Source: a virus
Taxonomy: Duplodnaviria > Heunggongvirae > Uroviricota > Caudoviricetes
IMG/VR virus record: IMGVR_UViG_2690316153_000015
Length of the DNA stretch: 37,792 nt
Strand: one strand, 5' to 3'
Shown: piece by piece, positions 25,643 through 37,792 of the stretch
Layout of the letters: every line of letters starts with the position of its first letter
Numbering within the stretch: the first letter of the stretch is position 1
The notes under the pieces: generated by a model
What the model was told of the DNA's origin: nothing
What the model saw: only the letters and a program-made list of their open reading frames with translations
Databases searched by the model: none
Translations under genes and position numbers: made by a program

Positions 25643-26242
25643 ATGCTTATTGGCTATGTCCGCGTATCAACAAATGACCAGAATACAGAATTGCAGCGTA
25701 ACGCGCTGGAGTGCGCAGGATGTGAACTAATTTTTGAAGATAAAATCAGCGGAACGAAATCAGCCAGACCGGGATTGAAAAAACTGATCAGAACGCTATC
25801 AGAAGGAGATACGCTGGTTGTCTGGAAGCTGGACAGACTGGGCAGAAGTATGAAACACCTGATCACGCTTATTGAGGAATTGCGGGAAAAAGGTGTTAAT
25901 TTCCGTAGTCTGACGGACAGCATTGACACATCAACACCCATGGGGCGTTTCTTTTTTCACGTCATGGGGGCTTTAGCCGAAATGGAACGTGAATTAATTG
26001 TAGAGCGTACACTGGCCGGGCTGGCAGCAGCACGCGCACAAGGACGCATTGGCGGACGTCGCCCGAAGTTGACAAAAGAACAACACGAGCAAATAGCGAG
26101 GTTGATTAAAAACGGTCATGACAGGAAACAACTGGCGATCATTTACGACATCGGCATATCGACGATTTATCGTTATCACCCTGTAGGCGATATACAGGCT
26201 GAAGAAACAACCAGGCAGACTCAGGAAAATGAAAACCGCTAA
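25643..26242 (+). CDS. pin: Serine DNA invertase, Hin/Gin/Cin/Pin family
   Basis: 199 aa; N-terminal MLIGYVRVSTNDQ with catalytic Ser, resolvase core, C-terminal HTH; adjacent to the invertible segment. Confidence 0.9.
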   Translation: MLIGYVRVSTNDQNTELQRNALECAGCELIFEDKISGTKSARPGLKKLIRTLSEGDTLVVWKLDRLGRSMKHLITLIEELREKGVNFRSLTDSIDTSTPMGRFFFHVMGALAEMERELIVERTLAGLAAARAQGRIGGRRPKLTKEQHEQIARLIKNGHDRKQLAIIYDIGISTIYRYHPVGDIQAEETTRQTQENENR

Positions 26243-26268
26243 TCTGACCATTAGCGGTTTTGCGTTAA

Positions 26269-26763
26269 TCAAAACAGCCCTTTAACGGAGCTGGCCGCGC
26301 TGTTAAGGGATGATGTGACCTTATCTTTGAAGCCGGACAGCATATCACTGAACGATGAGGATTGCAGGCGCTCCCGCAAATCCTCATCACAGCGTTCAAG
26401 GGTCAGTGAAAATTCTATCTTTTTCGCCTTACCGTAGCGATCAAACTCGGAACGGGTCGTATTCGTTCCAGTCAGGACATACATGCCGTAAATCTGCCCG
26501 ACGCCATCAATCAAAGGCCAGGGTCGTCCTGTATAAGCCTGCGTGGTCAGCAGCGACAGCGACACTTCGCCACCTGTAATTTCAGGATAAAGCACACCAG
26601 AAAGAACGATGCGATCATCACCTGCACCGATATACTGCCAGCTTGCTGAACGGTTAATGCGTTCATTTTTCACATGCCGCCAGCTTTTGTTTTGCTGTAA
26701 CTGCTGATGCGGCAGCGTGCGCAGCTCAAAAACAAACATGCCGTAGATCATCATCATGGCCAT
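26269..26763 (-). CDS. U: Tail protein (P2 gpU-like)
   Basis: 164-aa ORF downstream of the tape measure on the minus strand; start uncertain among several N-terminal Met. Confidence 0.75.
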   Translation of the reverse strand: MAMMMIYGMFVFELRTLPHQQLQQNKSWRHVKNERINRSASWQYIGAGDDRIVLSGVLYPEITGGEVSLSLLTTQAYTGRPWPLIDGVGQIYGMYVLTGTNTTRSEFDRYGKAKKIEFSLTLERCDEDLRERLQSSSFSDMLSGFKDKVTSSLNSAASSVKGLF

Positions 26764-26769
26764 GACTCC

Positions 26770-29613
26770 TCAATCTTTATCGTAAAAACTGCCACGCCCG
26801 GCACGGGCGCGCCGTTCCATTTCTGCCCTGACCATTTCACCGACCAGTTTCGCCAGTTCGCGGGGATTCTGCGTAACAACGTTATGCAGATGAACATGAA
26901 TTTCACCACCAAATTCGGAGGCAACAGGCTCCCGGTTACGGGAAGTTACAGGAACTGATGCCACTGGAGATCGTATAGCCTCCGCCACCGGGCGGGAGCT
27001 GGCCGCAACAACAGTGACCAGCGCCGGAGGCAGCGGAGCCGGGACCACGGGTGTGATATTAATTGCGGGGGCAGGCTTACTGACCTGCGCAATCTTCCGC
27101 TCCTGCCACTCCCCACGAACAGCAAGTGCGCGGGGCAGGTTCTTAAAGACAATATCGCCGGGGCCAATGCGTTTTTTCGTCTCATCAACCAGCTTACCTG
27201 TGTTATCAGCAATTTTGCTGAGTCTGCGTAGCGTCCCGGTATTGCTGTCTGTGAGCGGTTTGTTGTCTTTGGGTTTATCACCTCCGGTGCCATTGCCATT
27301 TTCCACAGGCTTCGGCGGATTGATTTTCGCAAGGTCCCCCTGAAGCAAGGCAACCTTGTCCTGAAGAATGGCCGCACGCTGTGCGTCTTCGATTTTCTTG
27401 CGCGCCTTTTCCGCTTCATCCGGAAGGACGCCAAGTTTTTCAAGTATCCACGCCAGCGTATCCAGTAGCATTTTTGCAGGTGTCAGAACAAGCTGTAACG
27501 CACCGCCAAGAACGTTACCGAATATCTCGCCAGCACTGGTACATTTATCCAGCGTTTCCTTGCTGGACTCCATCGGTGACAGCAGCGATTTAAACCAGTT
27601 AAACACCTGGCTGATCCCGCTTCCGATTGCGTCAAAAACAGGACCAAACCGTTCAAAGGTTTCGCGCAACGGGGTCAGCCTTTCCATAATCCCGCTGAAC
27701 ACCCCGGCAAAAAATGCCCTGATGGGATCCCAGTATTTCCAGATAAGAACGGCAGCTCCGGCAAGCGCAGCCACGATAAGACCAACCGGACTGAACAGCG
27801 CCCCGATAGCGCCTCCCAGTAAAGAAACGGAACCCGTCACCATTCCCCATAGTGCTGGCAGGACCCTGACAGCATTCATTGATCCGGTCAGGAGAGAAAA
27901 ACCAAGACGCAGTTTTGCCAGCGGACCAGCAAGCACACCAATAGCCAGCGACAACGAGCCAACCGTTGCAGTCATTGCCAGCAACGCACCGCCTGCTATC
28001 AGTAGCTGGCGCGTCAGTGCCGGATGGGCCTGCGCCAGCGCCGTCACCCTTGATACCACCCGCGCGAGCCACTGCGTGACAGAACGCAGCGGACCGTCAA
28101 TCAGATCTGCAATGCGGATGCGCAACCCTTCCCATGCACTGCCGAGTGATTTCAGATCGCCGTCAAGGTTGTTGGCCATAACCTTTGCTGTGCGTTCAGC
28201 CTCACCGCGCGCGCCTTCAAGTTCTTTTCTCAGTTTGGGTAAGGAACCGTCACCCGCTGCATCAACGAGCGCCATAAACGATGTGAAAGCCTCTTCTCCG
28301 GCAATGTCCTTAAAGAACGATACCCGGTCAACTTCCCCGTATTTGCGGGTGGCTTTATAAAGGTCGGCCAGCACATCCTCCATCGGGCGCATTTTGCCCC
28401 CGGCATCCGAGACGGACACGCCCAGCTCTTTCAGAGCTTCTGCCGCCGCCTTTGGCGGTGATGCCAGACGAGCCAGGCTGGCACGCATTGCCGTCCCGGC
28501 ATCACTCCCTCTGATGCCCATATTCGCCAGCACGCCAGCCATCGCTGCGGCCTGCTCCAGCGATATTCCCAGCTTACCCGCCACCGGACCTGCATATTTC
28601 ATGGTTTCGCCCAGTGCGCGAAGGTCAGTGTTGGTACGGGTAAACGCTGCGGTGAGTGTGTCACCGACCCGGTCCATCTGGTCAGCAGAAAGGCCGAACT
28701 GCGTCAGGATATTTGAGCCAATATCCGCCGTCTCGCCGAGATCCATGCCGCCAGCCGTTGCCATGCTCAGCACGCCCGGAAGCGCAGCCTGAATGGCCTG
28801 CGGTGTGAAGCCAGCCATTGCAAGAAATGCCTGCCCACTGGCGGCATCGCCTGCGGTGAACTGCGTTTCAGAGCCAAGTTTTAACGCCTGCTCACGCAGC
28901 GCCTTAAACTGCGGGCTGTTCTGGTCGATTCGCGTCAGTGCCTGAACGCGGGACATCTCTTTCCCGAACCCGATCGCAGGCTGCAAAAAACGCCCGGCAG
29001 CATAGCCGCCAGCCGCTGCCGCACCAATTGCCAGCGCACCACCTGTTTTCAGTTTTCCCGCGGTTTCCTGCGCGCGCGAATACCGCTCACGCGCCCGCGT
29101 TACACGCGCAAGCGCCTGCCGTTCGCGTTCAAGCTGGTTGTTGTACTGTTCGGTGCGTCTGATGGCCTGCTGGATGGTGTTATCGCTGCCTGTCAGGGAA
29201 ATGCCGTGGCGTTTCAGCTCTCCGCCAAGCTCCCGCATTTTCTGAATTTCCCGTGTACGCGATTCATTCAGGCGTTCAAGCCGGGTGCTTAACTGCTGCA
29301 TCAGCTTTTGTTGTTTTTCGCTGAGCACTGTACCCGTGCGTTGTAACTGATTAAGGGCGTTAAGCTGGCGTCGTGCTTTCACGACGCCAGCATCCGCTTT
29401 ACTGACAGCGTCGCGGGCGCGCTCAAATGATCGCGCCTGACGCTCGAGATTTTTGATCGCCCCCTGCGTTCGCTGGATGGAGTCACCAAACTGCCCCATC
29501 AGGCGGCGGGCGTTTTCGGCAGGTCGGGTCAGCCTGTCAACGGCGCTGAAAGCGACCCGGATATCAAGAGTCTTCATTGTCTGCATTCCCGCTGCGAAGT
29601 GCCGCCCGCTCAC
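26770..29613 (-). CDS. T: Tail tape measure protein (P2 gpT-like)
   Basis: 947 aa; coiled-coil N-terminus, central Gly/Ala-rich hydrophobic region; preceded by frameshifted chaperone. Confidence 0.88.
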   Translation of the reverse strand: MSGRHFAAGMQTMKTLDIRVAFSAVDRLTRPAENARRLMGQFGDSIQRTQGAIKNLERQARSFERARDAVSKADAGVVKARRQLNALNQLQRTGTVLSEKQQKLMQQLSTRLERLNESRTREIQKMRELGGELKRHGISLTGSDNTIQQAIRRTEQYNNQLERERQALARVTRARERYSRAQETAGKLKTGGALAIGAAAAGGYAAGRFLQPAIGFGKEMSRVQALTRIDQNSPQFKALREQALKLGSETQFTAGDAASGQAFLAMAGFTPQAIQAALPGVLSMATAGGMDLGETADIGSNILTQFGLSADQMDRVGDTLTAAFTRTNTDLRALGETMKYAGPVAGKLGISLEQAAAMAGVLANMGIRGSDAGTAMRASLARLASPPKAAAEALKELGVSVSDAGGKMRPMEDVLADLYKATRKYGEVDRVSFFKDIAGEEAFTSFMALVDAAGDGSLPKLRKELEGARGEAERTAKVMANNLDGDLKSLGSAWEGLRIRIADLIDGPLRSVTQWLARVVSRVTALAQAHPALTRQLLIAGGALLAMTATVGSLSLAIGVLAGPLAKLRLGFSLLTGSMNAVRVLPALWGMVTGSVSLLGGAIGALFSPVGLIVAALAGAAVLIWKYWDPIRAFFAGVFSGIMERLTPLRETFERFGPVFDAIGSGISQVFNWFKSLLSPMESSKETLDKCTSAGEIFGNVLGGALQLVLTPAKMLLDTLAWILEKLGVLPDEAEKARKKIEDAQRAAILQDKVALLQGDLAKINPPKPVENGNGTGGDKPKDNKPLTDSNTGTLRRLSKIADNTGKLVDETKKRIGPGDIVFKNLPRALAVRGEWQERKIAQVSKPAPAINITPVVPAPLPPALVTVVAASSRPVAEAIRSPVASVPVTSRNREPVASEFGGEIHVHLHNVVTQNPRELAKLVGEMVRAEMERRARAGRGSFYDKD

Positions 29614-30093
29614 GCCAGCTAACCACTTCGCCGGGCGTCATCATGAAGATTTCGGCGGGCGACCAGTTAAAAATGGCGGCAATATCCGCCACAAAGTCTT
29701 CTATGTGCTCAAAGCACACAACCGTGATCAGGCTTCCGTCGCCTGTTCGTTCTTCCCGCCAGAGTCCGCACCGCTCAAAAAATTTACGGCAACCACACAT
29801 AACTGAATAAAGTCACGGGATGCCATTTTTTTGATCGTCACTTCATCCAGTCGCGGTGATGTCACGCGTGACAGCAGCGTAAACATGGATTCCGCTTTCA
29901 GATTCAGCACATCAGACAGCGACAAATCTCGCAGAGATCCAGCCTGCTCAATAGCCCCGGTGATCTCCACATACGTGATTTTTTCGCCGCCTCGCTCAAT
30001 GGGTTGGGTAAGTTTTACGCCACGCTCACTGGTTTCTTTCACAGTGTCAGTAACTACCGTGTTTTCGGTATCGATGTTTTTCGTCTCTTTCAT
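29564..30093 (-). CDS. E+E' tail chaperone fusion product made by programmed -1 frameshift
   Basis: Slippery heptamer T_TTT_TTG on the minus strand (plus-strand CAAAAAA at 29776-29782) inside E; the -1 frame ORF 29564..29800 continues from it. Confidence 0.65.
29728..30093 (-). CDS. E: Tail assembly chaperone (P2 gpE-like)
   Basis: 121-aa ORF with AAAGGAG RBS between tail tube and tape measure. Confidence 0.75.
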   Translation of the reverse strand: MKETKNIDTENTVVTDTVKETSERGVKLTQPIERGGEKITYVEITGAIEQAGSLRDLSLSDVLNLKAESMFTLLSRVTSPRLDEVTIKKMASRDFIQLCVVAVNFLSGADSGGKNEQATEA

Positions 30094-30147
30094 CAGGAAA
30101 CTCCTTTCAGTCAGAGGCGACGCACTGCGTCGCCTGCATATTACTTA

Positions 30148-30660
30148 TCAGCCAAGCCCAAGCGCGGAACGGATGCGATCGGGCACAATGTCCTTGCCGT
30201 CCTTCCGGTAGATGTGGTTCAACAGGTCGATTTCCCACAGCGGGCGATCGTTAACGCTCAGCTTGTAGTAGGTGTTTTTGACAGCGTAAGTGTGTGATGT
30301 GGCTTCGCCCTGTTTGGCTTCCCCCATATCAATTTCCGTCACACGCCCGCGCATCTCGATTTCATACAGATCGCTTTCTGCATCGGTGTAGTATTCACCC
30401 GCAAAACGCAGCAGCGTGCCGTCAATCGTGCCGCCATACTTAAGGAACAGCTCACGAACTGCGCCCCCCATGACAAAGCTCGCATCAAGCGCGGAGTCAT
30501 CCAGGCCGAGATCAATACTTACCGCTCCCATCATGCCACCACCCCGGTAGCTGTCGGTTTTGCGCGTCAGCTTAGGCAAAGTGACGGACGTCACCTTACC
30601 CACTTCGTTTTCACCATCCACAAACAGCGTAAAAAAGCGAAGATGTTTTGGCACAGCCAT
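30148..30660 (-). CDS. FII: Tail tube protein (P2 gpFII-like)
   Basis: 170-aa ORF directly after the sheath gene; synteny. Confidence 0.85.
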   Translation of the reverse strand: MAVPKHLRFFTLFVDGENEVGKVTSVTLPKLTRKTDSYRGGGMMGAVSIDLGLDDSALDASFVMGGAVRELFLKYGGTIDGTLLRFAGEYYTDAESDLYEIEMRGRVTEIDMGEAKQGEATSHTYAVKNTYYKLSVNDRPLWEIDLLNHIYRKDGKDIVPDRIRSALGLG

Positions 30661-31844
30661 CAGGCACCTCCCAGCACCGCAAATGCGGGTTCAAAGTATT
30701 CATCAGTAAACGTCTGGTAAAGCTCCATGTCTTCCAGTGGCGGAACGGGCGTATATTTGTAGCGAATACGCACACGCCCCTGACGTAAATCCGTGGTGCT
30801 GTTATCCACCACGTCATACCAGCACTCCGCGCCAATCAGTTTCCCGGCAGTCACCAGTGAATCCAGTTTTGCCCTGATGGCACTGATAACATCCTTCACG
30901 TTCGCAGGCGTCAGTGGACTGTCGATGGTTTCAAACTGCGCTTCCGCAATTGAATCAGCCAGCACCTGTGCGGTTCGGGTATACACCTCAAAAATGTAGG
31001 CGTTCGTTTCCGGTGTGCGGTTGCCCCAGAAGCGGAACCCGTTGCGACGAATAATGGTCGTGATTTCTTTGTTGTTGAGGCTGTTGGCATCGCTGTCTTC
31101 GGCCTGCAACGACCAGAACACATGCCTCGACATCCCCAGCACATTTTTAACCGGAACGTTGGACAGCGATTTGTGCCAGCCCTGCTCATGGTCAATGTAC
31201 GCACGAAGGCCGCACGCATAAGCAGGCGCGGGGAACGTTTCGTTTTCGCCACTTTTCGGGTTGTAGGCGATGAAGTCCGGCCATAAGAGCATCACTTCAC
31301 GTTCGTTGAATTTCTGGCGGTAGGTAATCGCTTCAGCCATCGTGTTACAGCCGTGACATGAGGCATACACAAATGCGCGCAGTTTACCCGCAATCACGCA
31401 CAGGGATTTTGTCACCGCCTCCGTGTCCAGCTCCGGCGCGGCCAGAATACGCGGACGGTATCCGATGCTTTCATCCTGCTCTGCAACAAGCAGCGCATAC
31501 ATCCCCGTATAGCTGCCGTCATCCTCAGAACCACCGATAACCAGTTGATCCTGCGTCTTTTCGTCTTCTTCTTTGTGTTCAGCCACGCGAACGACGATCA
31601 CCTTTGTGCTCACCTGGTCTGCGATGGCCTTAAGCGCACGATAAAGCGTCCCCGTTGTTCCGCATTTTCCCAGCACGTCATTGACGCGGGTCAGCAGTGT
31701 GGGCTTGTTCAGCGGGAACAGCTTCGCGTCCGCATCATCCGCCGTTGCCACGATACCGATAACGCTGGAATCAACATCGTTAATCGCTGTTACCAGGTCG
31801 GTATTTTCCGTAACACGGGCACCATGAAAACGAGTTTCACTCAT
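30660..31844 (-). CDS. FI: Contractile tail sheath protein (P2 gpFI-like)
   Basis: 394-aa ORF, first gene of the leftward tail operon. Confidence 0.88.
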   Translation of the reverse strand: MSETRFHGARVTENTDLVTAINDVDSSVIGIVATADDADAKLFPLNKPTLLTRVNDVLGKCGTTGTLYRALKAIADQVSTKVIVVRVAEHKEEDEKTQDQLVIGGSEDDGSYTGMYALLVAEQDESIGYRPRILAAPELDTEAVTKSLCVIAGKLRAFVYASCHGCNTMAEAITYRQKFNEREVMLLWPDFIAYNPKSGENETFPAPAYACGLRAYIDHEQGWHKSLSNVPVKNVLGMSRHVFWSLQAEDSDANSLNNKEITTIIRRNGFRFWGNRTPETNAYIFEVYTRTAQVLADSIAEAQFETIDSPLTPANVKDVISAIRAKLDSLVTAGKLIGAECWYDVVDNSTTDLRQGRVRIRYKYTPVPPLEDMELYQTFTDEYFEPAFAVLGGA

Positions 31845-32001
31845 AGCTTCAGCCCCTTGTATCCGTTAAATGATTCGGCAACAATCATCACCCACCACGC
31901 GCGTAATCTCACCCCTGCGCCGTTCTCCCGCCACGGCGACAACAAAAAGCAGTAACCCCCTCCGCACGCACATGCGACCATGCCACACAGGGAGGGAGCA
32001 G

Positions 32002-33111
32002 ATGACCGACACCACCATGCAATTGCTCAGTCAGGGCACAGACCCCGTGAAAATGCCGGATTTTGATATTCTCGCCGAGGGTAAAACGCTGTCCGGCGTG
32101 GCAGAACGCCTGATGAGCCTGTCACTGACCGACAACCGGGGATTTGAGGCGGACCAGCTCACCATCACGCTGGATGATGCCGATGGCCAGTTGCAGCTAC
32201 CGCCACGGGGCGCGCGTCTGACGGTTCTCATTGGCTGGAAAGGGGAACCGCTGACAGAAAAAGGCACTTACATTGTTGATGAAATCGCTCACGAAGGACC
32301 GCCGGACAGGCTGACTGTTTCAGCCAGAAGCGCAGATTTTCGGGATGAATTTAACGTTAAACGTGAGGTGTCCTGGCATGATGTGACCGTTGAGCGTGTG
32401 GTATCCGCCATCGCTCATCGGTATGGTCTGAAACCGCAAATCAGCGAAATGCTGATGGATATCGAAATCGACCACGCCGACCAGACCGAAGAAAGCGACA
32501 TGTCCTTCCTTACGCGCATGGCGGAAATGCTGGGCGCAATCACCACGGTAAAAAGCGGTAATCTGTTATTCATCATGCCCGGTGGTGGCGTGAACGCACA
32601 GGGCCAGCCGTTGCCCTCGTTCGCCATCACACGCAACAGCGGCGATCGCCATCAGTTCCGCATTGCTGACCGCGAAGCGTATACGGGGGTACGCGCTTAC
32701 TGGCTTGATCTTAATTACGGGAAAAAGAAAAAAGTCAGCGTGAAACGCCGCAAACCGTCAAAACCAAAAAAGGAGAAAAGCAGCAGCCGGGAAGGCGACT
32801 ATATGGAAGGTGCGGAAGGCAACGTGTTTGTGTTACGCAAAACTTATCAGAACGAGCAGGCAGCAAGACGCGCAGCGGCGGCAAAGTGGCAGCAGCTACA
32901 ACGCGGAGCCGCATCATTCTCCATCACGCTGGCGCGTGGACGTGCAGAACTCTACCCCGAAATGCATGGCACGGTAACAGGATTTAAAAACGAGATTGAT
33001 AATCAGGACTGGATTATTGCAAAAGCCGAGCACACCATTGATAACAGCGGCTTTACCACGCAGCTTGAGCTTGAGGCAAAAATCCCGGAATGGATAGCAG
33101 AAACAGAGTGA
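32002..33111 (+). CDS. D: Tail protein D (P2 gpD-like)
   Basis: Probable start MTDTTMQLLSQ at 32002 after GGAGGGAG; divergent from the sheath operon. Confidence 0.8.
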   Translation: MTDTTMQLLSQGTDPVKMPDFDILAEGKTLSGVAERLMSLSLTDNRGFEADQLTITLDDADGQLQLPPRGARLTVLIGWKGEPLTEKGTYIVDEIAHEGPPDRLTVSARSADFRDEFNVKREVSWHDVTVERVVSAIAHRYGLKPQISEMLMDIEIDHADQTEESDMSFLTRMAEMLGAITTVKSGNLLFIMPGGGVNAQGQPLPSFAITRNSGDRHQFRIADREAYTGVRAYWLDLNYGKKKKVSVKRRKPSKPKKEKSSSREGDYMEGAEGNVFVLRKTYQNEQAARRAAAAKWQQLQRGAASFSITLARGRAELYPEMHGTVTGFKNEIDNQDWIIAKAEHTIDNSGFTTQLELEAKIPEWIAETE

Positions 33112-33178
33112 GCAACTTAGACATATTAGCTCAAACTTAAACTGGCAAGTTTACAGTATAGAATTAAACATAAACGAC

Positions 33179-33209
33179 GGTCCGCTCCGTGTCAGAAGCG
33201 GACTTTGTC
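33179..33209 (+). terminator. Putative terminator hairpin after D (GGTCCGCT...AGCGGAC then TTTGTC)
   Basis: Inverted repeat followed by a T-rich tract between convergent D and the AT-rich gene. Confidence 0.35.
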
Positions 33210-33231
33210 ATCCCTATGTAAGGTTGATTGC

Positions 33232-34254
33232 TTAATACGCATTTAATTTAAATTTGTATTTGCCTTCTATGTAATGGATAAATTCAATTATGCTTTTTTC
33301 TATCGCATCTAATATATGAATATATCCATCCCGATTTAAGGTCCTATCCAACTCAAAGTGATGAACTATCCCATGTCTATATTGTATGATTTCAGAAATT
33401 CGATTCTCAAGAAAATCAACTGATTTTCCAATTCTTTTTTTCTTATAAAGAATCGCTCTCACATCTATATCCAGCCACTCTTTATATGCTTTGTTTAGGT
33501 GGGTTAAGTTTTGAAAAGTGTAATTTCTTGCAATAACACTTTCTATTGAAATATTTCCTTTCTCTATCTCAAGCAGAATATCAAAATCAACTTTTTGCTT
33601 ATACGATGTTCTTTTTGCTATTGCGAAAGGATCGTACTTTATAAGTATTTGAAAAGCTCTAGAGAAAAAGTATTCAAACATAGCAACCGCAAAAGGTACT
33701 AATCCATTATATATAACTCTACTGGGATCCATACATTGCATGTAATCAAAGTATTCGGATAAGCCGCCATCTTCCGGTAGGTTTAATTTAATAGAAGGTT
33801 CAGGTAAGGCATGTTTAACAGCGGAAATCTCATGATGGACATGATTAAATATTGAAGAAATGCCACGACTGATCGGACTACTAGAATCCTTCCATAGAGG
33901 AGCGTACCTATTTTTCCCATAATCACCTATAAGTGTTCCACCAAAAAGACTCCTTGCGCCTTTTAGAACATCATTAAGCATTTTTACATCATGCCAACTA
34001 GCGCTATATAAATTACGCACATGCAATGCCCATTTATTACCAGATATGTGTAATTCGTCATTTGAAACAGGATATATATCAGCCGAAACTCCATCTGTAG
34101 ATTTGAAGTCCGTATCATCAAACCAAGAGTAATTCAACGTTCCTTGGGGCCATCCCCACAAATGTTTACACCTTTTAAAACCTAAATTTTCAAGGTAATT
34201 TTTAAGTTCGTTTCTAGTTGCTTTTTTAGGGTACAGCGTTATATCTCTTCCCAT
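33232..34254 (-). CDS. AT-rich hypothetical protein with C-terminal R-x4-H (HEPN-like) motif
   Basis: 340-aa ORF; low GC relative to backbone; motif YRHGIVHH near the C-terminus; inserted between D and ogr. Confidence 0.6.
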   Translation of the reverse strand: MGRDITLYPKKATRNELKNYLENLGFKRCKHLWGWPQGTLNYSWFDDTDFKSTDGVSADIYPVSNDELHISGNKWALHVRNLYSASWHDVKMLNDVLKGARSLFGGTLIGDYGKNRYAPLWKDSSSPISRGISSIFNHVHHEISAVKHALPEPSIKLNLPEDGGLSEYFDYMQCMDPSRVIYNGLVPFAVAMFEYFFSRAFQILIKYDPFAIAKRTSYKQKVDFDILLEIEKGNISIESVIARNYTFQNLTHLNKAYKEWLDIDVRAILYKKKRIGKSVDFLENRISEIIQYRHGIVHHFELDRTLNRDGYIHILDAIEKSIIEFIHYIEGKYKFKLNAY

Positions 34255-34445
34255 GCTTTATTCACCTGATATACAATATTTTAAATTTTAACTATTATGA
34301 ACGTATGAATTTTCACATTGGATGTATGGAAGTTCAACAACTATTGAAAGTTCAATTTTCACTCTTCGCACAGAGCGAGCTGTTAGTTGGAATTAGGGAT
34401 CGTACAATCTAGAATAGCGGCAACACCACGTTAAGGGAGGTCGCT

Positions 34446-34706
34446 ATGTTCCGTTGTCCGCTTTGTGGCGCATCTGCCCGTATCCGCACAAGTCGTCCGG
34501 AAAATGATTCAAACACCGTGCGGCAAAAGTATTACCAGTGTAACAATCTGGAATGCGGCGTATGCTTCTCAACACTGGAAGCTTTCCATAAATTCACATC
34601 GAAACACGCCTCCGGCGTTCACTCTTCAGAAGGTATCCCGTGGCATGAGCTACCAGCTTCACACAGGGGAAACAATCAGATGAGTTTGCCTTTACCTCAG
34701 AATTAA
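34446..34706 (+). CDS. ogr: Ogr-type zinc-finger late gene activator
   Basis: MFRCPLCGAS...QCNNLECGV gives the C-x2-C...C-x4-C pattern and N-terminus of P2 Ogr. Confidence 0.85.
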   Translation: MFRCPLCGASARIRTSRPENDSNTVRQKYYQCNNLECGVCFSTLEAFHKFTSKHASGVHSSEGIPWHELPASHRGNNQMSLPLPQN

Positions 34707-34896
34707 CAAGCAGAATTGCCGGAGTAACAAAAAAGCGATAGATTACGCGCGGGTGCCTTTCGGCTGATGGTCGGAGGGAATACCCGAAGGCCAGATGTGG
34801 AAAGGCCCCGGAAAACACTTTTGTTTAACCGAGGCCCTAACCGTCTACCCTAAGCAAGTGAAAGGTTAGCGCCTCTCCGGAAAAGGAGCAAGTGCT

Positions 34897-35037
34897 ATGT
34901 CGCAAAAATCGCTTACAGCCATCACGTTCTGCGTGACGGTAATCCTCATCATCTGGATGTTGCACGGTTCGCTGTGCGAAATACGGATGAGTTTCTGGGG
35001 AGCGGAGTTTGCGGCGTTCTTACAGTGTAAGCAGTAA
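34897..35037 (+). CDS. Hok/Gef-family type I toxin (46 aa: MSQKSLTAITFCVTVILIIWMLHGSLCEIRMSFWGAEFAAFLQCKQ)
   Basis: Single TM helix followed by the conserved SLCEIR...E.AAF signature of Hok/Gef peptides; AAGGAG RBS; GC hairpin GACGGGGGA-GTAAT-CCCCCGTC downstream; absent from the ORF track because under 60 aa. Confidence 0.65.
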   Translation: MSQKSLTAITFCVTVILIIWMLHGSLCEIRMSFWGAEFAAFLQCKQ

Positions 35038-35298
35038 GGAAACCGCGACGGGGGAGTAATCCCCCGTCAATCGGTTGCCAGGGTAAGGTCGATAAGGCAC
35101 CCTATCTCACGGCTCTAAATGCAAAAATTCCATGAAACTGTGGGATTTTTGCATCACTACTGATACAGATCTGCCCTTCTATATGTCTCACTCTATACCA
35201 GCTAATCAATTGACACTTATCAATAAAAAAAAATCTGATAAAATCAAAATGTTTTGTAACAAATATCAACTCGTATTGATCCAAAGGAGGCGGATTAC

Positions 35299-35631
35299 AT
35301 GGCATTAATCAAATGTCCTGAATGCCAGAAAGAGGTGAGCGATTCAGCATTGTATTGCCCTGCTTGCGGTAAACAAATAAAAAAACTTAAGCGTTCATTT
35401 TTTGGAAAGCTCATTAAGTGGATATTTATATTATTTAATATTTTTATGATCTATACGCTTTTAGTTGGACTGGGAGGCACTAGTGAAATAATAAATAATG
35501 CTACATCCGATGCCGAAAAAGCCGGTGCAGTTATTGGTACAGGCTTAGGTTTAATTACCATTGGAAGTTTATGGGTTATTGGCGATATCATTATCGGAAT
35601 TTTAGTATTTCTTACTAAACCAAAAGGATAA
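35299..35631 (+). CDS. Zinc-ribbon membrane protein (hypothetical)
   Basis: 110 aa; N-terminal CPEC-x13-CPAC zinc ribbon then two hydrophobic helices; AT-rich; GGAGG RBS. Confidence 0.6.
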   Translation: MALIKCPECQKEVSDSALYCPACGKQIKKLKRSFFGKLIKWIFILFNIFMIYTLLVGLGGTSEIINNATSDAEKAGAVIGTGLGLITIGSLWVIGDIIIGILVFLTKPKG

Positions 35632-35635
35632 CAAA

Positions 35636-36529
35636 ATGAAAAATATAATTTTTTCTATAGGTGCATCATTTATATCAATTAGTGTACTGCCTGTTCACGC
35701 AGCAACTGAACATAATAACTTCAATGCAGTACTCCAGTGCCGAGCAATAGAAAATAATAAAGACAGACTTTCTTGTTACGATAAGTCAATACAACCGACT
35801 CGAACGAAAGTTGCTGAAAAATTCGAAAGCAGAGATCAATGCCCTGATGAGAAAGATGATGACAGACGTTTATCTTGTTATGATCGTTTTTTTTCTCCAA
35901 CATTTACTCCATCTGTAAACTCAAAATCTAAAACGGAAAAGCCAGTAACAACAGAGGCTCAGCAACCAAATCTTTCTGAGATATCTAAATGCCGAGCAGA
36001 AAATGATAAAGAAGCCAGACTAAACTGCTACGATAAACTATTCCCACAGGATAAAGCTGTTCAAGCTGAATCAAAATTAGAGAAAGCCACAGATGTAGGA
36101 AAATGGCACACATCCATTACTACATCGCCAATTGATGATTCGAAAAATGTAATTTTATCGTTAGAAAGTGATGATTATATCAGAACTCCATTTGGAGAAG
36201 CGGTTACTCCCACTCTGTTTATAGCTTGCCGAGAAAAGAAAACCGAAGTATTTCTTAGTTGGGATGTATATTTAGGCCTTGAACAAACCAGCATGCTTTA
36301 TCGTCTTGATAAACAGAAAGCAGTTGAGCGAAACTGGCTAGTATCTACAGATACAAAGGCTGTTTTTTATAAAGGTAATGACATTGATTTCATCCGAAAA
36401 CTAGCCAACTCAAACAAAATGTATACAAAAATAACTCCTTATAATGAGAGCCCTGTAAGTGCAACTTTCAATTTAAACGGCCTGTCAAACGCGCTAAAAC
36501 CACTTCAAGCTGCTTGTAACTGGAAATAG
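35636..36529 (+). CDS. Secreted protein with three tandem C-x12-C-Y-D repeats (hypothetical)
   Basis: 297 aa; signal peptide ending VHA-AT; repeats CRAIENNKDRLSCYDK, CPDEKDDDRRLSCYDR, CRAENDKEARLNCYDK; 4 bp after the upstream gene. Confidence 0.65.
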   Translation: MKNIIFSIGASFISISVLPVHAATEHNNFNAVLQCRAIENNKDRLSCYDKSIQPTRTKVAEKFESRDQCPDEKDDDRRLSCYDRFFSPTFTPSVNSKSKTEKPVTTEAQQPNLSEISKCRAENDKEARLNCYDKLFPQDKAVQAESKLEKATDVGKWHTSITTSPIDDSKNVILSLESDDYIRTPFGEAVTPTLFIACREKKTEVFLSWDVYLGLEQTSMLYRLDKQKAVERNWLVSTDTKAVFYKGNDIDFIRKLANSNKMYTKITPYNESPVSATFNLNGLSNALKPLQAACNWK

Positions 36530-36555
36530 CATAAATCATGTGGCTTAGCCACAAT

Positions 36556-36600
36556 CACAGATAACACAAAGCCCGTGAAAACGGGCTTTGTGTTATCTGT
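36556..36600 (+). terminator. Strong hairpin (19-bp perfect stem ACAGATAACACAAAGCCCG / CGGGCTTTGTGTTATCTGT, 7-nt loop)
   Basis: Perfect inverted repeat 26 bp after the stop of the secreted-protein gene. Confidence 0.5.
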
Positions 36601-36614
36601 AACTCGAAAATGTG

Positions 36615-36631
36615 GTCACTACGTGGACACG
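36615..36631. repeat. Candidate attR core GTCACTACGTGGACACG, matching GACACTGCGTGGACAC at 14..29 inside the 3' end of int
   Basis: 15 of 17 bp shared between a sequence at the int end of the prophage and one just before host flk. Confidence 0.3.
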
Positions 36632-36796
36632 TGCTGATATAAATCCTTTTATATCAATAAATTAAATCATCATTTTTTTCATCAACAAGGATTTTCACGT
36701 TTGTGTTACCTGTATGAGACGAGAGTTAACCGGACAAGTGTGCCATAATCTCGCGGCCAGGCATACTTGCGAAGATTTCAGGTATAAGGATACGTA

Positions 36797-37792
36797 ATGA
36801 TACAACCTATTTCCGGCCCTCCTCCTGGGCAACCACCAGGTCAGGGAGATAACCTGCCGTCTGGCGCGGGCAATCAGCCTTTATCCAGTCAGCAACGTAC
36901 TTCGCTGGAAAGCTTAATGACGAAAGTGACCTCACTGACGCAACAACAAAGAGCAGAACTGTGGGCGGGTATCAGGCACGATATTGGTCTGTCGGGAGAT
37001 TCACCGCTGCTTTCGCGTCACTTCCCTGCCGCTGAGCATAATCTGGCGCAACGTCTGCTGGCCGCGCAAAAAAGCCATTCTGCCCGCCAGCTTTTAGCGC
37101 AATTAGGGGAGTATTTACGTCTGGGGAATAATCGTCAGGCGGTCACGGATTATATCCGTCATAACTTTGGTCAGACACCGCTGAATCAGCTCTCACCGGA
37201 GCAATTAAAAACCATTCTCACCCTGTTGCAGGAAGGGAAGATGGTTATTCCGCAACCACAGCAGCGCGAGGCGACCGACCGTCCTTTATTACCGGCGGAG
37301 CACAATGCGCTAAAACAGCTGGTGACCAAACTTGCGGCGGCAACGGGGGAACCCAGCAAACAGATCTGGCAATCGATGCTGGAACTTTCCGGGGTGAAAG
37401 ATGGCGAGTTAATTCCAGCGAAACTGTTTAACCATCTGGTGACCTGGTTGCAGGCGCGCCAGACGTTAAGCCAGCAAAATACGCCGACGCTGGAATCACT
37501 ACAGATGGCGCTAAAACAACCTTTAGATGCCAGTGAACTGGCGGCGTTATCGGCATATATCCAGCAAAAATATGGCCTTTCTGCGCAATCATCGCTTTCT
37601 TCTGCCCAGGCCGAGGATATTCTTAATCAGCTTTATCAACGGCGGGTTAAAGGGATTGATCCGCGTGATATGCAACCGCTGCTTAATCCTTTTCCACCGA
37701 TGATGGACACGTTGCAAAATATGGCAACGCGTCCCGCGCTGTGGATACTGTTAGTCGCGATTATCCTGATGCTGGTCTGGCTGGTTCGTTAG
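36797..37792 (+). CDS. flk: Flagellar regulator Flk (host gene, C-terminal membrane anchor)
   Basis: 331-aa ORF with PPGQPPGQ N-terminus, Gln-rich body and C-terminal TM LWILLVAIILMLVWLV, as in enterobacterial Flk; normal GC content. Confidence 0.8.
   Translation: MIQPISGPPPGQPPGQGDNLPSGAGNQPLSSQQRTSLESLMTKVTSLTQQQRAELWAGIRHDIGLSGDSPLLSRHFPAAEHNLAQRLLAAQKSHSARQLLAQLGEYLRLGNNRQAVTDYIRHNFGQTPLNQLSPEQLKTILTLLQEGKMVIPQPQQREATDRPLLPAEHNALKQLVTKLAAATGEPSKQIWQSMLELSGVKDGELIPAKLFNHLVTWLQARQTLSQQNTPTLESLQMALKQPLDASELAALSAYIQQKYGLSAQSSLSSAQAEDILNQLYQRRVKGIDPRDMQPLLNPFPPMMDTLQNMATRPALWILLVAIILMLVWLVR

Follow-up and report, generated by a model that had tools for sequence, protein, structure and literature searches.

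A 340-aa protein encoded at 33232..34254 on the minus strand of a P2-like prophage of E. coli is, in our analysis, probably an anti-phage effector of abortive infection that works as a single, self-contained protein and is borne as a moron, a reading that we favour with considerable room for doubt. The protein combines an N-terminal α/β domain with a predicted HEPN RNase domain, and we are confident that it is a HEPN-fold protein with an intact RNase-type site. The window, which is the whole 37,792-nucleotide stretch of DNA analysed, was assigned to a P2-like prophage (Peduoviridae, Gemsvirus-type). We infer that the protein is an active RNase, that its N-terminal domain holds it in check and senses the trigger, which RNA it targets, and that it protects against phage.

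The ORF call on the window gave a 340-aa ORF with an ATG start at 33232..34254. Its GC content was 0.337, compared with 0.526 in the phage part of the window, and the sliding GC profile showed values of 0.30-0.38 over approximately 33050-34400 and of 0.52-0.58 on the side of gene D. The left flank was tail gene D (31870..33111, plus strand; Pfam Phage_GPD, 2e-17), which is convergent with the target gene and ends 120 bp from its stop. The right flank was the ogr/Delta late-gene activator (34446..34706, plus strand; Pfam Ogr_Delta, 5e-14), which is divergent from the target gene and starts 191 bp from its ATG. A first-pass annotation made from the sequence had reported a low-GC minus-strand ORF between D and ogr, convergent with D, and its coordinates, length of 340 aa and low GC were all reproduced. 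The string YRHGIVHH, described there as lying close to the C-terminus, was located at aa 292-299 of the protein, placing the R-x4-H motif at R293-x4-H298. The gene is AT-rich and of foreign origin.

Comparison with the empty D-ogr junction of sister prophages delimited an inserted cargo module of approximately 1284 bp (33126..34409). In a BLAST search with window positions 32900-34800, homology with the empty locus L010 ended at approximately 33125 and restarted at 34410. The earlier statement that D and ogr normally lie close together agreed with the empty loci of this lineage, in which 42 bp separate the D stop from the ogr ATG. The module junctions shared only a 4-bp TAGA microhomology; no target-site duplication was found at the module ends, and the inverted repeats flanking the module were chance-level repeats only. 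The module contained one ORF, a hairpin terminator and 155 bp of AT-rich upstream DNA, with no room for a second protein gene.

The signals around the ORF were then described on the minus strand. An intrinsic-terminator-like hairpin with a 9-bp stem and six G-C pairs (33180..33203) was found 29 nt after the target stop, and the folding of the 3' region gave a z of -2.9 relative to shuffles. Because this hairpin reads on both strands, it can also terminate D. The AT-rich upstream region of 155 bp (34255..34409) presumably holds the gene's own promoter, as judged from sequence. A Shine-Dalgarno element, AGGTG (34263-34267), precedes the ATG by 8 nt. Two direct repeats, TTGAACTTyCA (34327-34337 and 34345-34355, spaced 18 bp), could be an operator or promoter element, and a minus-strand scan upstream of the gene found no strong match to a sigma-70 consensus promoter. 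The leader showed no unusual RNA structure (z = -0.85). An Rfam E-value scan of 32900-36800 returned sok only, outside the module, and no abiF RNA motif, and no conserved partner gene was found among the neighbourhoods of relatives examined. The target is a standalone gene without a partner; the proposal of a single-gene cargo held, with a 1.28-kb module carrying one ORF and no conserved neighbour in relatives.

The right arm of the prophage was virtually identical to Escherichia phage 500465-2, with the same gene order and a target protein 99.7% identical. The right end reads D, target gene, ogr, hok/sok and then host DNA near flk. A search of 5,426 complete E. coli genomes found an identical target gene in 65 (1.2%), as one copy each, always chromosomal and in all 65 cases in the D-ogr context, and no match was found in 72,556 plasmids. 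Approximately 95% of sister prophages were without the gene. About 1,200 E. coli genomes had this type of D/ogr junction, which was uninterrupted in 720. Other occupants of the site in sister prophages were single genes in either orientation, namely genes for a PIN_12 protein of 356 aa (locus L011, 1915-2985), a DUF3800 protein of 389 aa (L012, 1834-3003), a hypothetical protein of 221 aa (L013, 1937-2602), an α/β-hydrolase of 252 aa (L014, 1869-2627) and a SEC-C/YecA-family protein of 379 aa (L015, 2133-3272); an IS element was a further occupant. Since different single genes, or none, occupy this position in sister prophages, D-ogr is a cargo slot. The foreign GC content, the discrete breakpoints at 33126/34409, the terminator, and a slot that is empty or has at least six alternative occupants mark the target gene as moron cargo. 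The five alternative protein-coding cargos gave no real match to PADLOC models. As none of them is catalogued as a defence gene, the view of D-ogr as a defence hotspot is suggestive and not conclusive. These uncatalogued cargos may amount to a store of accessory or defence genes.

The HEPN reading rests on conservation, profile matches and structure prediction. The predicted RNase active-site motif, R293-H294-G295-I296-V297-H298 (33361..33378, minus strand), is an Rx4H motif, supported by conservation and the model. R-x4-H occurred in 53% of shuffles of the target protein and R-x4-6-H in 89%, indicating that the motif alone is not above chance, and a second R-x4-H at R308-H313 was unconserved. 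We therefore regard R293 and H298 as meaningful through their conservation across relatives and not through motif presence. Conservation was assessed in 24 close relatives and in 58 full-length diverse relatives of 20-62% identity. R293 and H298 were invariant in both sets, and the only invariant columns in the 58 diverse relatives were D89, E194, R293 and H298. Positions conserved at 90% or more in these relatives included G55, S86, N94, F104, G105, G106, G113, F247, Q248 and H294. The first-pass annotation had taken R-x4-6-H as the HEPN signature and had named non-conservation among homologues as a refutation; the R-x4-H of the target was invariant in the 58 relatives. H294, the polar residue directly after R293, was 95% conserved in the 58 relatives, and active HEPN domains are known to carry a polar N, D or H directly after the conserved R (PMC3710099). 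HEPN families also usually have a conserved upstream acidic residue, typically as Ex3[KR] in helix 2 (PMC3710099). The invariant acidic residue E194 (33673..33675, minus strand), in the long helix 177-207, is a candidate second active-site residue; its context is E194-YFF-S198, so that the Ex3[KR] spacing is not kept.

The Pfam profile HEPN_RiboL-PSP (PF18735) matched aa 181-329 over profile positions 29-189 of 191 (E 1.2e-4), with a score of 22.5 bits for the target protein, below the gathering cut-off of 28.4 bits. The same profile was matched by 40 of the 58 diverse relatives, and no other profile recurred. Scores of relatives fell on both sides of the cut-off: P0004 (81% identical; 32.4) and P0060 (29.0) passed, while P0099 (27.2) and P0006 (23.3) failed. 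By these scores, the target subfamily appears to sit at the edge of the PF18735 model.

Two AlphaFold2 models were built, model 1 from a 24-sequence alignment (pLDDT 80.3) and model 2 from the 58-sequence diverse alignment (pLDDT 95.7, pTM 0.90). Both had identical topology with a helical C-terminal domain. The predicted HEPN domain spans aa 179-335 (33250..33720, minus strand) and follows a long helix (aa 127-149) and a linker. In the models it is an up-down bundle of four helices, with an insert separating helix 2 from helix 3; helix 282-299 carries the motif at its C-terminal end, ahead of the loop that leads to helix 308-333. This placement corresponds to that in known HEPN domains, in which the Rx4-6H motif sits where helix 3 closes and extends into the loop that joins it to helix 4 (PMC3710099). 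A Foldseek search of model 1 (pLDDT 80.3) against PDB and BFVD viral structures returned no match at E <= 0.001, the sole suggestive row being a phage MAE_28990-like HEPN protein at E 0.18, and the family profile retrieved nothing at E <= 10 from all PDB sequences. The HEPN relationship is therefore at superfamily level only. The proposed Foldseek check for a HEPN fold was thus negative in PDB and BFVD, the structure-prediction check gave HEPN topology in both AlphaFold2 models, and the HEPN reading as a whole was supported by the PF18735 matches, the invariant R293 and H298 and the canonical modelled topology.

A word-index search found 295 homologues, and the best 120 of these 295 were 64-87% identical and full length. 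They came from Pantoea, Proteus, Shewanella, Aeromonas, Pseudomonas, Methylococcaceae, Halochromatium and many metagenomes. When 1.84 billion cluster representatives were searched exhaustively with a profile, 339 clusters at 50% identity were obtained. Complete family members were approximately 330-370 aa long and matched the query end to end, and members of odd length were frameshifts, deletions or split genes. Disrupted copies (frameshift, split gene) were present in several genomes, as expected for a costly gene. In many members, the codons of Y195-F196-F197 formed a T6-T8 homopolymer beside E194 (loci L020, 4001-5100, and L021, 4001-5077). The Pseudomonas sp. 15A4 copy carried a 1-nt deletion in this T tract, giving a 203-aa truncated ORF, the Geovibrio copy was split into 240 and 113 aa, and about 30 more N-terminal 'halves' of approximately 200 aa each were present in databases. 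These disruptions may reflect an off-switch prone to slippage, or else an artefact of sequencing. The copy in the window reads TAC TTT TTC at 33664-33672, so the run is interrupted and the gene is intact.

The N-terminal α/β domain (aa 1-125; 33880..34254, minus strand) has the order β-α-β-β-β-α-β and is a putative sensor or regulatory domain. It had no family match. Its conserved patch, S-x2-D-x4-N followed by FGG, contains the invariant Asp89, and G55, S86, N94, F104, G105, G106 and G113 within the domain are near-invariant. The mean top-residue frequency of the N-terminal domain versus the nuclease was 0.85 versus 0.79 in close relatives and 0.40 versus 0.40 in distant ones. A profile search with the N-terminal domain only retrieved the target family alone, including truncated copies, indicating that the domain is never combined with another effector. 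The model suggests that the N-terminal and HEPN domains pack as one unit (pTM 0.90). We also considered an MNT-like nucleotidyltransferase reading of the domain and rejected it, as there were no nucleotidyltransferase structural matches and the motif spacing was wrong. Tentatively, and with more doubt than confidence, we suggest that the domain is a previously undescribed sensor or enzymatic module that directly detects a conserved infection cue; such a cue could be a small molecule, or else a macromolecule of phage or host that is conserved, and not a fast-evolving phage protein. If this were true, sensing by the N-terminal domain would provide solo HEPN immunity with a new sensor-effector logic, and phages and islands would have carried it through Gammaproteobacteria and into other groups. 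The undescribed domain is the most intriguing part of the target protein.

The genomic contexts of relatives were varied. In all seven other hosts examined, the gene was AT-rich relative to its flanks. A Shewanella relative lay beside ssb, an Aeromonas relative formed an islet between a chemoreceptor gene and cysC, and a relative in an smpB island lay beside AbiTii (PADLOC, 9e-34) and two integrases. A Pseudomonas relative was found in a DUF927/MvaT element beside a UvrD-type helicase. The disrupted Geovibrio copy was at smpB, with an integrase and hipA. Two relatives were phage-borne: a Pantoea relative (82% identical) lay in a lambdoid prophage after a λ-P-like replication gene and adjoined the PADLOC candidate PDC-S11 (5.5e-112), and a relative in another P2-like phage (81% identical) adjoined tail-fibre and assembly genes, probably in a Z/fun-type slot. 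A recognisable defence gene was present in just two of about nine neighbourhoods (AbiTii and PDC-S11).

The target protein was compared with known systems. PADLOC v2, which includes ApeA, PD-T4-2, PD-T4-5, PD-T7-3 and AbiD/F, gave 0 families at E <= 1, and NCBIfam and PHROG profiles gave no match; judged by these profiles, the protein lies outside every PADLOC-catalogued defence system. Literature searches on WP_000532200, 'RiboL-PSP' and PF18735 found no experimental work on the target family, and found no test of any protein with its two-domain architecture. The closest analogue is HepS of Gifsy-1 in Salmonella, which has no partner gene and is constitutively expressed but inactive (PMC13043305). 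HepS is activated by a phage tail-tip protein and cuts tRNA anticodon loops, resulting in abortive infection (PMC13043305). Both are solo HEPN proteins on prophages. However, HepS (PDB 9oik) is a single domain with a 218-residue chain, whereas the target adds the 125-aa N-terminal α/β domain; the two have no detectable sequence similarity and differ in Pfam family, and the phage carrying HepS is lambdoid whereas that of the target is P2-like.

The only profile matching the target, with nearly the whole model covered, is that of the Ribo L-PSP-HEPN family (PF18735; Anantharaman et al. 2013); that study (PMC3710099) counts the family as catalytically active and relates it distantly to AbiF/AbiD. 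The features that gave PF18735 its name, the endoRNase L-PSP fusion and the ParB operon, are absent from the target family: no L-PSP/YjgF domain was found in 58 members and no ParB in the neighbourhoods examined. HEPN proteins recur among validated E. coli defence genes (PMC9519451, PMC10952713), and a review lists PF18735 for PD-T4-2, PD-T4-5, PD-T7-3 and ApeA. These systems, PD-T4-5 (AbiF/D-like), PD-T7-3, PD-T4-2 and ApeA (Vassallo 2022, Gao 2020), are small HEPN-containing systems like the target; they are frequently borne by P2-like prophages or other mobile elements, and for several the mode of action is abortive infection. Their architecture differs from that of the target, whose hotspot is D-ogr and not gpA-gpQ or Z/fun. 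AbiF/AbiD proteins (Abi_2), including the RNA-regulated AbiF of a C. difficile prophage (PMC12373285), are phage- or plasmid-borne solo HEPN toxins. The target protein had no Abi_2 Pfam match, and an AbiF-type RNA antitoxin is unsupported because neither an abiF RNA motif nor a structured leader was found. HepT/MNT type VII toxin-antitoxin systems (PDB 7ae2, 5yep, 8xdj) have toxins of approximately 130 aa that are neutralised by an adjacent MNT nucleotidyltransferase, and the target differs from them in having no MNT gene or domain in its module. The target is a credible new member of the solo-HEPN abortive-infection class.

In the mechanism that we propose, by analogy with HepS and other characterised solo HEPN defence proteins, the target would be transcribed alone, opposite to the flanking late genes, ending at its own terminator. 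The lysogen would express the protein, with the nuclease held inactive by the tightly packed N-terminal domain until that domain senses a sign that a competing phage has infected the cell. The C-terminal HEPN RNase would act through R293 and H298, helped by H294 and probably by E194, in a metal-independent site; as in other HEPN enzymes, two copies of the protein most likely pair to complete it. The active enzyme would go on to cut an essential cellular RNA (tRNA anticodon loops or mRNA), and translation would then stop before the invader finishes its cycle. The earlier proposal of a defence or toxin cargo thus gained from the finding of a single-gene mobile cargo with a HEPN domain, but found no PADLOC system match, and its defence activity is a matter of interpretation. 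One point against the defence reading is the conservation of the N-terminal domain (0.85 in close relatives), which is above that usual for arms-race sensors.

Other functions were weighed against the same data. An RNase that serves the phage in the prophage life cycle or in mobile-element conflict, rather than in abortive infection of the lysogen, might degrade host or competitor transcripts after induction, counter a host defence or exclude P4-like satellites. Its position inside a phage genome beside late genes would suit such a role, as would the constant conflict of P2-like phages with P4 satellites (PMC9122126) and the presence of counter-defence functions among the accessory genes of phage hotspots. 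However, the gene is transcribed against the late operons and not behind a late promoter, it also occurs in integrase-bearing chromosomal islands without phage genes, a setting in which a part in the phage life cycle would hardly make sense, and it is dispensable, as shown by the sister prophages that do without it; we consider this role unlikely.

If the gene were an addiction or stabilisation toxin that keeps the prophage in the lineage, the HEPN RNase would be a post-segregational killer, the N-terminal domain would be its fused, cis-acting antitoxin, and other phages would be unaffected by it. Differential stability, which post-segregational killing needs, cannot arise with a fused antitoxin, and the N-terminal domain does not resemble a nucleotidyltransferase. 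The module contained no MNT or other antitoxin gene and no Rfam match, the scanned stretch contained no abiF RNA motif, and the gene was absent from the plasmids searched, where addiction modules thrive, making this explanation very improbable. We give as little credence to a hitch-hiking housekeeping or regulatory protein for RNA processing or RNA binding, or to a non-cleaving HEPN protein that binds nucleotides or RNA. Some HEPN domains are indeed binding modules without catalysis (PMC3710099), and the very high conservation across orders (64-87% among the best 120 of 295 homologues) would be in keeping with a housekeeping or binding function. Non-catalytic HEPN domains, however, have lost Rx4-6H, whereas the target keeps the R, the H, the polar residue after R and the upstream acidic residue. 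The family is also patchy, AT-rich and island- or phage-borne, with recurrent pseudogenes, a distribution that fits an accessory conflict gene and not a housekeeping one.

If the abortive-infection reading is confirmed, an uncatalogued single-gene defence family of about 340 clusters at 50% identity would be added to the E. coli immune repertoire, with members also in Pantoea, Proteus, Shewanella, Aeromonas, Pseudomonas, methanotrophs and purple sulfur bacteria. For a specialist, one more HEPN moron carried by a P2-like phage would come as no surprise, yet this family is widespread, uncatalogued and well modelled. With a model at pLDDT 95.7, it would lend itself well to studying how a solo HEPN nuclease stays silent and gets triggered; the cultured phage 500465-2 carries the gene, and R293, H298, E194 and D89 are clear choices for point mutants. 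The D-ogr gap of Gemsvirus-type P2-like prophages would, if confirmed, be a third cargo slot worth mining.

Several further features of the prophage were observed outside the module. The minus strand carries the tail operon FI-FII-E-E'-T-U (26269-31844), whereas D (31870-33111) and the tail-fibre genes upstream are read from the plus strand. The tail block (window 25643-33111) has a DNA invertase gene (25643-26242) at its other edge. From these strands, the tail block is inverted relative to the classical P2 order, and the arrangement is fixed in 500465-2 and strain B7A. A hok/sok type I toxin-antitoxin module lies directly 3' of ogr (window 34751-35069) and is kept in all sister prophages examined. 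It comprises sok RNA at 34751-34910 (Rfam RF01794, 51.9 bits versus a gathering score of 59, E 6.6e-10), a Hok/Gef ORF of 46 aa (34897-35037) and a hairpin terminator (35046-35069). Window positions 35299-36529, past the end of the prophage and short of host flk, hold a gene pair with a GC content of 0.33-0.38, coding for a zinc-ribbon membrane protein of 110 aa (phrog_6586, 7e-43) and a VasI/TagO-like T6SS-associated protein of 297 aa (Pfam VasI, 2.6e-25). As ihfA lies no more than about 300 bp past hok in lysogens integrated elsewhere, the pair probably forms an islet of its own that does not belong to the prophage. In E. coli strain M19 (L011, 3898-4225), a Com-family regulator and a DNA methyltransferase, Mu mom-like, were found past hok; they occupy the position of the host DNA of the window, which suggests a further variable slot at the right end of the prophage.
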